From assembly GCF_056746865.1 (NCBI RefSeq), contig NZ_CM163382.1: a DNA stretch of 64,000 nucleotides; one strand, 5' to 3'. Shown in pieces: positions 18,001 to 21,000 of the stretch (positions within the stretch are counted from its first letter, which is position 1; each line of letters opens with the position of its first letter). The position numbers are program-made.

Positions 18001-21000
18001 CGCAAGGCCTGCGCCAAAAACCGTATCACTTTTGTCACTGCCTTTGTATTTATCCGCCCATGCCCCTTCACCATCAACGAAACGTTGCTCTGAAAGTGAC
18101 ATAACAGAAACACCGGCTTTACCGGTCACATAAAAGCCAGTTTTGTTCTCATCAGCCAGAGTCTGGGCCGAAAACATGCCTGCCATTGCAAGTGTTGAAA
18201 CAGCAATAACCTTTTTCATTTCAATCATCTCCGTTGGTTCTTACCCCACCCGATAAAGAAGGTTGCTCATTTTAAAACCATGCAAAAGACAAGGTAAAAA
18301 GAGAAAATTCGATCGAATCGATCGACAAAATCGATCATGAATGATGAAGATTTCTTATCGAAGACATGAAAATGATAAGGAATGGTTTAAGAGGTAATTG
18401 CAACGGCATGGAAGTATTGAGACCAGAACAGCACGAGATAAAGCGGCTGAACGTCAGATGAGCCACATGGACGTAACTCAGTGCAGGCAGCGTATATCCA
18501 TAAAGCGGAGCATCTGGATGAGCGCAAGCTGATGCTGCAGTGGTGGGCAGATTTTCTGGATGCCAATCGGGAGAGAGCGATTACGCCGTTTGACTATGCG
18601 AAGATCAATCGGGGTAATGGCGAGTGAGTTGTTTATCAAATTTGCTAAATTAAAACTATTTAACCTGCCTTATAGGGACGATTGGTTGGCTATTTCACTA
18701 GAAGTAATGTAGATAACAGAAGCCTGGTCTATCATTTTGATAGACCAGGTCAAGATTAATAGAATTAGATTTTTTATTGGCGTGTTGAATAAATTTTAAA
18801 GGGTCCTAATAAGTTTGTAGGATTTAATTGAAAACAGTAAGGGAAATACTTAACATATAACTTCACGCTCTTCTATTAAATCAAAAACATTATTCGTAGT
18901 GTAATGTTCCCATCTTTTATTATATCCCTCTTTCGACAAAATTGAGACATCATCCGTTCCTTCTCCCTCATCTAAACCATGCATGAAACAAACTCCAGCA
19001 ACATTAGAAAGAACATATCTATTATGCAGACATTCATTACCCTCGCGAGAAGTTAAAGACTTAAATGTTACTGATAATTTAAAATCGTCTGGAAAGACAA
19101 GGTTTTCGCGGTTCAACTTATTAGCCAAATAATTCACCGTTGGGGAGTTTTCTTTACTCCCATCAAATATAACATCTATCTTTAAATTTTTTTTATAAGA
19201 GTTATTAGCACTAACGCTAAGTAATGAAATAAATACATTCCACCATCTTTGTTTGTCACTAAAGTATGGGTCAACTATAATAATATGCTCTGATGTTTTT
19301 AATAAGCGTGAGATTATAGATATCATATCCTCAGCAATTCTAGCAACAATTTTTTGCCGAGCATAATTTAACCCAAAGAAATCATCTATATTAGTTACAT
19401 CAAGGTTATCACAAGGAGTAGAACTCACTACATGATCAAATTGTTCAATTCGATTTACAGCAGAGATGTTATCTGACCATGACATGTCACCAACATAATC
19501 ATAAACCCTACTAACCTTATTATTTTTCAAAAAAATAATAAGGTCCTCTAATCGTTTTTTTTGAAGTTCACTATGATTAGCATTTAATAGCCCAAGCAAT
19601 TGTTTTTTATTTCTCTTCAGCTTTGGTAATTCACTATAGAGAAAGTTACCGCCCGTAGAAAATCCTTTTATGAAGTCACGATAATTTCTCCGATCAATTG
19701 CGATCTCAAACAAAGCCTCTGGTGAAATGGCGCATTCGTAGAACATTAAAAAAGCTCTCCCCTTCTTTCTTCGAAGAAACCTTTGGGCCATTTTTGTTTG
19801 AAGTCACCATCATCAGTAATATCTATTTTCCTAGTAACAGTCGAACCATTATTATCCTCGAAAACGATCACTGATATAAAATCAGGTTTTACTGGGTAAT
19901 TTGATTCAGGTAATTCATTGTCCGTTGTTTGTCTAATTCTTTTTAAAATTCGAAGCAAAATGTGCTCACTATGTGTTTCGACTAAAAACATAGGTCTTTT
20001 AACATCAAGGGGATATTGGGTAAACAGATCACCTACAGCGAGTTGTAAAGCGGGATGAATATGTAGCTCAGGCTGCTCTATAGCAATTAATCCATCCTGA
20101 ACTATATTGGCTGCAATAATAAGAGGTGCTATCTGAGTTAATCCGACACCGACTTGATTTGGAAATAACATTTGGCTTGAATCTATTTTACAGAAGTAAA
20201 CATTATCTTTCAGACCTAAAAGTTGAGGGGAGGTTTTTATATCAAATTCTCCTCCACTAAATATATTATAATTAGTGTTTAGTTTATCTCTATTGGAAAA
20301 CCAATCACTTACTTTTTTAATCAAATCACTATCATTTTGTTGAGATAAACACAGCTTATCCCATGCTGATGTACCATCAAACCATCCATTTTGTTCTGGA
20401 TAAGGATTTGGCGTAAATGAAGAATCAGGTATAATTCTTAACGGTCCAATAGATACGCTAGCCTTTAAATAATTATTTAATTTATCTAACGGAGAAGTAA
20501 AAACTTGCGTTAGCACTCTGGTGATTATATCTCGATTAAAATACTCAACTGGCTCGGATATATCAAAAACTTTCAAATTTGTATCAACAGTTCTTCCCAG
20601 TTGAGGTAACGCACCAATTTTCGTCTTTAAAAAAACAGGAAACATTGGTTTTTCTTTATCTTCTTCAAATATATAATCAACAGTTTTTACTCGCTCTGTT
20701 GCACCACTTTTATTACGTTCTAAGCCAGGAATTAAGTCATTTAAAGATATTTCAAATTCACTGGCAATCGTATCTAATCCTTCCTTATCAATAGATTCAA
20801 GCCATAAATTATAATCAATAGGAAGAAGCAACGGATGAGTAAAGTTCAATCTATTTACTAAAGATGATTTAGTATACTCATCATTACTTAGCTCTCCAAT
20901 AAATTCATTATTTATAGAAACAGCATAGTTCTTTATATATGCTGCTCTGTGCAATTGTGACCATGCGATTTTAAACTCTACATAAACCTTTTCAGTTTCA

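Follow-up and report, generated by a model that had tools for sequence, protein, structure and literature searches.

A conserved triplet of Dam sites upstream of an Hra/Hek/Tia-family adhesin gene as the candidate operator of a std-like epigenetic switch

The DNA analyzed here, a 64-kb stretch of contig NZ_CM163382.1 (assembly GCF_056746865.1; referred to as the window), carries on its minus strand a gene for an outer-membrane beta-barrel protein of 245 amino acids (17482..18219; PF13505, E = 3e-20). This gene is preceded by a cluster of three GATC sites, the target of Dam methylation, which is the subject of this work. The start codon at 18219 is backed by a GGAG Shine-Dalgarno sequence 9 nt upstream (18229-18232) and by the same start in RefSeq for an identical locus. 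The protein shares 67% identity with a RefSeq-annotated Tia and 60-66% with hek-type proteins, and its predicted form, an eight-stranded outer-membrane protein (OMP) beta-barrel of about 245 residues, assigns the gene to the Hra/Hek/Tia outer-membrane adhesin family. Hra1, Hek and Tia are adhesins or invasins of enteroaggregative, neonatal-meningitis, uropathogenic and enterotoxigenic E. coli.

The cluster had been noticed in a first-pass annotation as three GATC sites within 26 bp (18311, 18320 and 18333), located about 95-115 bp before the start codon and inside a repeat-like sequence. The observation holds in the window sequence. The sites start 95, 104 and 117 bp 5' of the ATG or, read on the gene strand, at -117, -104 and -95, which corresponds to a spacing of 13 + 9 bp. 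The quoted repeat-like sequence TCGATCGAATCGATCGAC was found at 18309-18326, where it encloses the GATCs at 18311 and 18320 and includes a perfect 17-bp palindrome. Overall, GATC occurs 225 times in the window, with 249 occurrences predicted from base composition, and three triples within 30 bp were counted. When GATC sites were placed randomly, at least one triple within 26 bp appeared in 56% of the trials, so that the clustering as such is not significant. A triple with precisely the layout GATC-N9-GATC-N5-GATC is present only once in the window, and none of 100 dinucleotide shuffles produced it. What lifts this cluster above chance is its conservation, as described below. The other two triples (37915-37934, spacing 9 + 7; 38456-38478, spacing 14 + 5) both lie within coding sequences of a resistance/transposon region, have no promoter context and are probably due to chance. 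Judged by translation only, the open reading frame (ORF) with one of them resembles an IS91/ISCR-type transposase, while the other lies in the adjacent ORF; a gene resembling floR (39158-40372, likewise by translation only) lies next to them.

Between the cluster and the gene, sigma-70 prediction returned a single promoter-like site on the gene strand. It consists of a -35 hexamer TTTACC (18293..18298, minus strand), an 18-nt spacer and a -10 hexamer TAAAAT (18269..18274, minus strand), the latter being TAGAAT in some alleles. With its poor -35 hexamer and its 18-nt spacer, this promoter looks activator-dependent. The predicted transcription start would fall near 18262, which places the promoter-distal site GATC-1 (18333..18336) at about -71 to -74, the central site GATC-2 (18320..18323) at about -58 to -61 and the promoter-proximal site GATC-3 (18311..18314) at about -49 to -52, 12 nt 5' of the -35 hexamer. 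The core of the cluster is formed by two overlapping 17-bp palindromes. The first, P1 (GATCGA-TTTTG-TCGATC; 18320..18336, minus strand), spans GATC-1 and GATC-2 and holds ATCG-N7-CGAT, a LysR-type T-N11-A box (ATCGATTTTGTCGAT, 18321-18335) centred at about -66. The second, P2 (18309..18325), is the perfect palindrome TCGATCGA-A-TCGATCGA and spans GATC-2 and GATC-3. A position around -66 is the textbook location of the recognition site of LysR-type regulators, and we propose P1 as the main recognition site of the putative regulator. From the alignments, the core can also be read as three ATCGAT-like hexamers with a 9-bp period, and a fourth hexamer, TTCGAT, lies 27 bp upstream. It includes the hexamer CGATAA (18355..18360, minus strand; 24 nt before GATC-1), possibly a distal contact of the same regulator. 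Promoter and operator together form a module of 111 bp (18263..18373, minus strand) that hra, tia and hek loci share with related ones. At 18325-18309, the P2 palindrome and a T-run give rise to a terminator-like call, which sits 5' of the promoter and was rejected as a terminator. No Rfam family matched around the 5' region, and the single-strand DNA structure of the core is not unusual (z = -0.2).

The first-pass annotation had named conservation of the triplet in homologous loci as one of its checks, and the triplet is indeed kept. Of 5426 complete E. coli genomes, 1626 carry the 111-bp module, with one to four copies per genome. It precedes hra-, tia- and hek-type genes in differing contexts, among them pap operons, subAB, atoS, an H-NS-family gene and defence genes. 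Between gene subfamilies, the core is identical at 25-29 of 29 positions, compared with 65-72% identity for the coding DNA and 60-67% for the proteins. Across 12 sampled alleles, which are not independent lineages, the 29-bp core had a column identity of 0.95, and the 12 GATC columns reached 0.986. Values of 0.94-0.99 were obtained across the -35 hexamer (0.99), the spacer and the -10 hexamer (0.94). Identity was lower in the 10-bp stretch that links the core to the -35 (0.71), and also in the upstream flank and the 5' untranslated region (0.80). P1 falls in the best-conserved block 5' of the promoter. GATC-2 is present in every allele of this alignment and is gone only from the deletion allele L016. 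GATC-1 is kept in all sampled alleles but L010 and L016, and GATC-3 is missing in L013 only.

The geometry extends beyond E. coli. Two Salmonella enterica homologues (L142 and L144), whose proteins are only 49-50% identical to that of the window, keep the GATC triple with its 13 + 9 spacing, and the modules align with 81% identity over 63 nt (blastn). The distal box P1 of L142 equals that of the window exactly (GATCGATTTTGTCGATC). The inner bases of P2 vary freely in the Salmonella homologues, whereas the flanking G and C that complete the GATCs are conserved. In four lineages, namely the window, the E. coli allele L007 and the two Salmonella loci, the distance from GATC-3 to the start of the best sigma-70-like promoter is exactly 12 nt, even though hexamers and linker differ; it is this fixed distance that places P1 at about -66. 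The CGATAA hexamer lies 24 nt from GATC-1 in the window, L007 and L142, and 21 nt from it in L144. A Providencia homologue and an E. coli paralogue with 53% identity carry no GATC triple. Taken as a phylogenetic footprint, this pattern is that of a functional operator with fixed geometry, and it supports the view that the triplet is linked to the promoter and conserved within the Hra/Hek/Tia gene family. We consider it very probable that the triplet region is a functional operator.

Natural variants of the module were found as well. In L010, GATC-1 is changed to GATT, in L016 a 45-bp deletion removes the distal two sites, and L013 has lost GATC-3. A 9-bp insertion in L005, L014 and L015 gives rise to four GATCs with a spacing of 13, 9 and 9 bp. 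These four-GATC alleles carry a proximal box ATCGGTTGTAACCAT that abuts the -35 hexamer and agrees with the OxyR half-site consensus at 8 of 10 positions. The four-GATC module is always paired with a divergent H-NS-family gene just upstream (L005 3639-4112, L015 1335-1808), of which pseudogenes are present in L013 and L014. The adhesin coding sequences of L005 and L014 are 97% identical to that of the window, yet their upstream allele differs, which shows that the regulatory region recombines between alleles. These variants are consistent with a switch open to loss or remodelling.

In the window, the adhesin gene sits within a defence island (13420-17062 and 18850-22519). One side of the island carries a WYL/WCX regulator together with proteins that match PDC-M09A and PDC-M40B, two PADLOC candidates; the opposite side holds an AriA/NsnB/PDC-M55A-like ATPase and its 313-aa partner (no family match), followed by a type I restriction-modification system. 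Just 5' of the module, at 18481-18627, lies the C-terminal remnant of a P4-type integrase, a pseudogene in the annotation of identical genomes, which marks an island junction. A phosphoethanolamine-transferase (sulfatase-family) gene follows 3' of the adhesin gene on the same strand at most of the E. coli loci and at one of the two Salmonella loci examined (L004 828-2327; L001 894-2396; L142 3425-4951; L147 3420-4922). In the window, it is located at approximately 11400-12770 (offset from L003 1-1368), and a four-gene cassette lies between the two genes. The gap between adhesin and transferase gene in L004 measures 174 bp and contains a promoter-like site and no terminator, so that the transferase gene may be co-regulated by the putative switch. 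At hek-type loci (L001 3536-3904, L002 3530-3898), a 122-aa ORF (MSAQEKTVQIDSF...) stands between the module and the outer-membrane protein gene, so that the module drives a different first gene there. This ORF has a hydrophobic stretch near its C-terminus, as judged by eye, and no Pfam match. In Salmonella L142 (1465-2352), the adhesin gene lies directly 3' of a GTPase-domain gene (MMR_HSR1 Pfam match), with a DUF932 gene further on. This parallels yeeP-flu in CP4-44 of K-12, in which flu follows the yeeP pseudogene (L012 1-312), although the parallel concerns gene order only. The two Dam-linked adhesin modules may be alternative cargos of related islands.

What the sequence shows is the sites with their conservation and geometry, as well as their likeness to known switches; the identity of the binding protein, its methylation sensitivity and bistable expression are inferred. 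In our preferred interpretation, to which we assign a probability of approximately 50%, a LysR-type activator acts at an operator that is sensitive to Dam methylation, has the GATC triplet as its core and lies immediately 5' of a weak sigma-70 promoter; that the adhesin is under a Dam-sensitive bistable switch appears evenly balanced as well. Here, the regulator would bind P1 and the overlapping P2 only as long as the GATC adenines are unmethylated, and transcription would then be activated. Dam methylation would prevent binding and would make OFF the default state. Once bound, the regulator would block Dam, and by capture of the site after replication, the undermethylated ON state could be inherited, with ON and OFF adhesin subpopulations as the outcome.

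As to the regulator, the model is the std operon of Salmonella. Its upstream site carries three GATCs at -242, -229 and -220, i.e., 13 + 9 bp apart (PMC6735912), a spacing that is confirmed by methylome coordinates (PMC9239280) and by the std sequence recovered here. The LysR-type activator HdfR binds the std site only when it is unmethylated, requires GATC-2 and GATC-3 and shields them from Dam, and expression is bistable (PMC6735912). HdfR, acting as at std, is favoured here on the grounds that the layout is identical and the box matches, although the assignment is tentative and on balance doubtful. OxyR is the second candidate, an unlikely one that nevertheless stays in consideration because the 13-bp pair is conserved and is the best-conserved part of the cluster. 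HdfR of E. coli K-12 is 87% identical to Salmonella HdfR, and the DNA-binding domain (residues 1-60) is identical at 59 of 60 positions; hdfR of the strain itself lies outside the window.

Several points weigh against this interpretation. The transcription start, on which the position of the cluster depends, is itself a prediction. The counterpart of P1 at std is dispensable for HdfR, whereas at our locus P1 is conserved better than any other part. A std-like or ATCGAT-N3-ATCGAT box was not found in the HdfR-linked promoters of flhDC and hdfR, so that the HdfR motif stands without independent corroboration. No StdE/StdF-type feedback genes flank the locus, and a GrlA/StdE-type homology search gave only GrlA and a GrlA-like protein of S. 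salamae; the bistability could therefore be weak or absent. As for OxyR, the full 37-bp site (ATAGnTnnnAnCTAT-N7-repeat) scores 11-12 of 20 here and 14 of 20 at agn43, and scores of at least 11 are reached at about 0.5% of the window positions. Finally, as the module recombines, part of its conservation could reflect spread and not selection.

Among the alternatives, an ordinary operator survives best, although we regard it as unlikely. In this case, a regulator would read ATCGAT-type hexamers 9 bp apart, the GATCs would be incidental, and expression would be graded with no role for methylation. The three hexamers at a 9-bp period and the fourth 27 bp upstream speak for it, and it accounts for the conservation equally well. 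Besides, most promoter GATCs have no epigenetic role, and methylation and expression are largely decoupled in Salmonella (PMC9239280). However, the flanking G and C that make the GATCs are conserved (0.986 over the 12 columns), even in Salmonella where the inner P2 bases vary, and all characterized sites of such a layout (std, agn43, gtr and mom) are methylation-sensitive.

The first-pass annotation had pointed to a resemblance to the agn43 (flu) switch and had raised the possibility of phase variation. Such a switch would have OxyR bind the unmethylated triplet and repress, while Dam methylation would keep the gene ON. The resemblance holds in part: both systems concern an autoaggregating outer-membrane adhesin on a mobile island, and both have three GATC sites with a 13-bp pair framing ATCG-N7-CGAT. 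The distal pair matches the GATC-II/III segment of agn43 at 20 of 29 positions in register, and at 15 of 17 in the L007 allele as judged by eye. In K-12, GATC-II/III of agn43 frame ATCGTTTATATCGAT, which agrees with the OxyR half-site consensus at 8 of 10 positions; P1 reaches 7 of 10 in the window and 8 of 10 in the L007 and L005 alleles. In addition, the core of Salmonella L144 aligns to the agn43 site (blastn), and L142 shows the order of GTPase gene and OMP gene known from yeeP-flu. The likeness fails in the spacing (13 + 9 instead of 19 + 13), in the lower full-site score given above and in the position. The agn43 site sits at the annotated start of the transcript and immediately beyond it, a position from which OxyR represses, whereas the cluster here occupies an activator position at about -49 to -74, 12 nt 5' of a predicted and conserved -35 hexamer. 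Since the cluster keeps this fixed distance upstream of the -35 and does not cover the transcription start, agn43-like steric repression is unlikely, and the activator-dependent look of the promoter likewise disfavours it. All in all, we consider a repressing switch of this kind improbable, and a Dam-sensitive switch at this locus would plausibly be of the std type rather than of the agn43 type.

Still less probable is an effect of SeqA, which would bind the hemimethylated GATCs and cause transient silencing or timing after passage of the replication fork, with no heritable ON/OFF state. SeqA requires at least two nearby hemimethylated GATCs, which the cluster could offer, and, going by the title of a 2008 study by Jakomin and colleagues, it is said to contribute to std repression. 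However, it would remain unexplained why P1 is conserved outside its GATCs (GATTTTGTC), and the palindromic box and the fixed distance to the -35 would not be accounted for either. A functionless chance cluster kept through recent common descent is scarcely credible: GATC triples within 26-30 bp are expected in a 64-kb window, but the core is far better conserved (25-29 of 29) than the coding DNA (65-72%), the same spacing recurs in Salmonella at 50% protein identity, and none of the 100 shuffles reproduced the layout.

Members of the Hra/Hek/Tia family occur in roughly 30% of the complete E. coli genomes and also in some Salmonella. Tentatively, and with the odds rather against it, we propose that the portable 111-bp cassette puts this whole adhesin-invasin family under std-like epigenetic ON/OFF control, perhaps also the phosphoethanolamine-transferase gene that follows. 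Besides pap (Lrp), agn43 (OxyR) and sci1 (Fur), pathogenic E. coli would then have a further, previously unrecognized system of Dam-dependent phase variation, a widespread addition to the few Dam-dependent epigenetic switches of this species. A literature search with partial coverage of the Hra/Hek papers returned no publication on Dam-linked control or phase variation of hra1, hek or tia. If these proteins are expressed in a heritable subpopulation, knockout phenotypes, the choice of vaccine antigens and in-vitro expression studies would need to be re-read.

The locus was also set against further Dam-dependent systems. With the pap family, it would share the Dam-dependent control of an adhesin, and several hek and tia loci adjoin pap operons. 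Of the pap-type Dam/Lrp switch itself, no GATC pair 100-104 bp apart was found near the locus, the best pap-box match there was 8 of 11, and papI or papB genes were absent. For a sci1-type Dam/Fur switch, the best Fur-box match reached 10 of 19, a score attained by about 2% of the window positions, and no Fur box lies over the GATCs. A further group comprises gtr, opvAB and Mu mom. In P22 gtr, each 13-bp GATC pair forms one OxyR half-site, and methylation abolishes binding (PMC2909390). The 13-bp pair, which serves as one OxyR half-site throughout this group and at agn43 and no longer binds OxyR once methylated, is also present here, and in gtr and opvAB, OxyR activates from upstream of the -35 in the ON state, which is where the cluster lies in our case as well. 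However, this group has four GATCs in two 13-bp pairs with alternative OxyR registers approximately 32 bp apart, whereas only one such pair is found at the adhesin gene.

By sequence, the closest known match to the GATC cluster is the upstream site of Salmonella std. The std motif is printed in PMC2328253, and with its help, the full std sequence (ACGATCATAATCATCGATCGTATCGATCTA) was recovered from a metagenome contig (L140) carrying stdA, an usher and a chaperone. On this contig, the std GATCs (8670-8695) lie at -239 to -214 from the stdA start codon, which is nearly the published -242, -229 and -220, so the published numbering may not be relative to the transcription start. Because MAFFT went out of register through the 9-bp hexamer periodicity, the std alignment was set manually in register on the GATCs; in this register, std and window agree at 14-15 of 18 positions in the segment and at 25 of 39 over the whole region. 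A scan of genomes with the pattern GATC-N8-CGATCG-N3-CGATCG gave at least 120 matches, with chance ones from high-GC genomes, and was uninformative.

The two systems differ in several respects. The cluster described here lies 12 nt from the -35 hexamer, whereas the std cluster precedes the stdA ATG by 214-239 bp. At our locus, P1 forms a good palindrome, while GATC-1 of std is dispensable and its box degenerate, and the controlled genes are unrelated. Against this stand the shared features. Both sites have three GATCs in 26 bp with 13 + 9 bp spacing in the same orientation to the gene, and a box across GATC-2 and GATC-3, which is HdfR-dependent at std and has P2 as its counterpart here. In the window, the plus-strand sequence TTCGATCGAATCGAT (18308-18322) is identical to std ATCGATCGTATCGAT at 13 of 15 positions; it is the one match to ATCGATCGTATCGAT with at most two mismatches in the 64 kb, and was assigned to these coordinates by hand. 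Allele L014 even contains GATCGTATCGATC, which is identical to the std core. In both cases, finally, the gene under control, or proposed to be so, encodes a surface adhesin. If true, the cluster would be the first HdfR/Dam switch outside std, and the architecture of std, which has been described for a single Salmonella operon, would turn out to be a reusable regulatory design.

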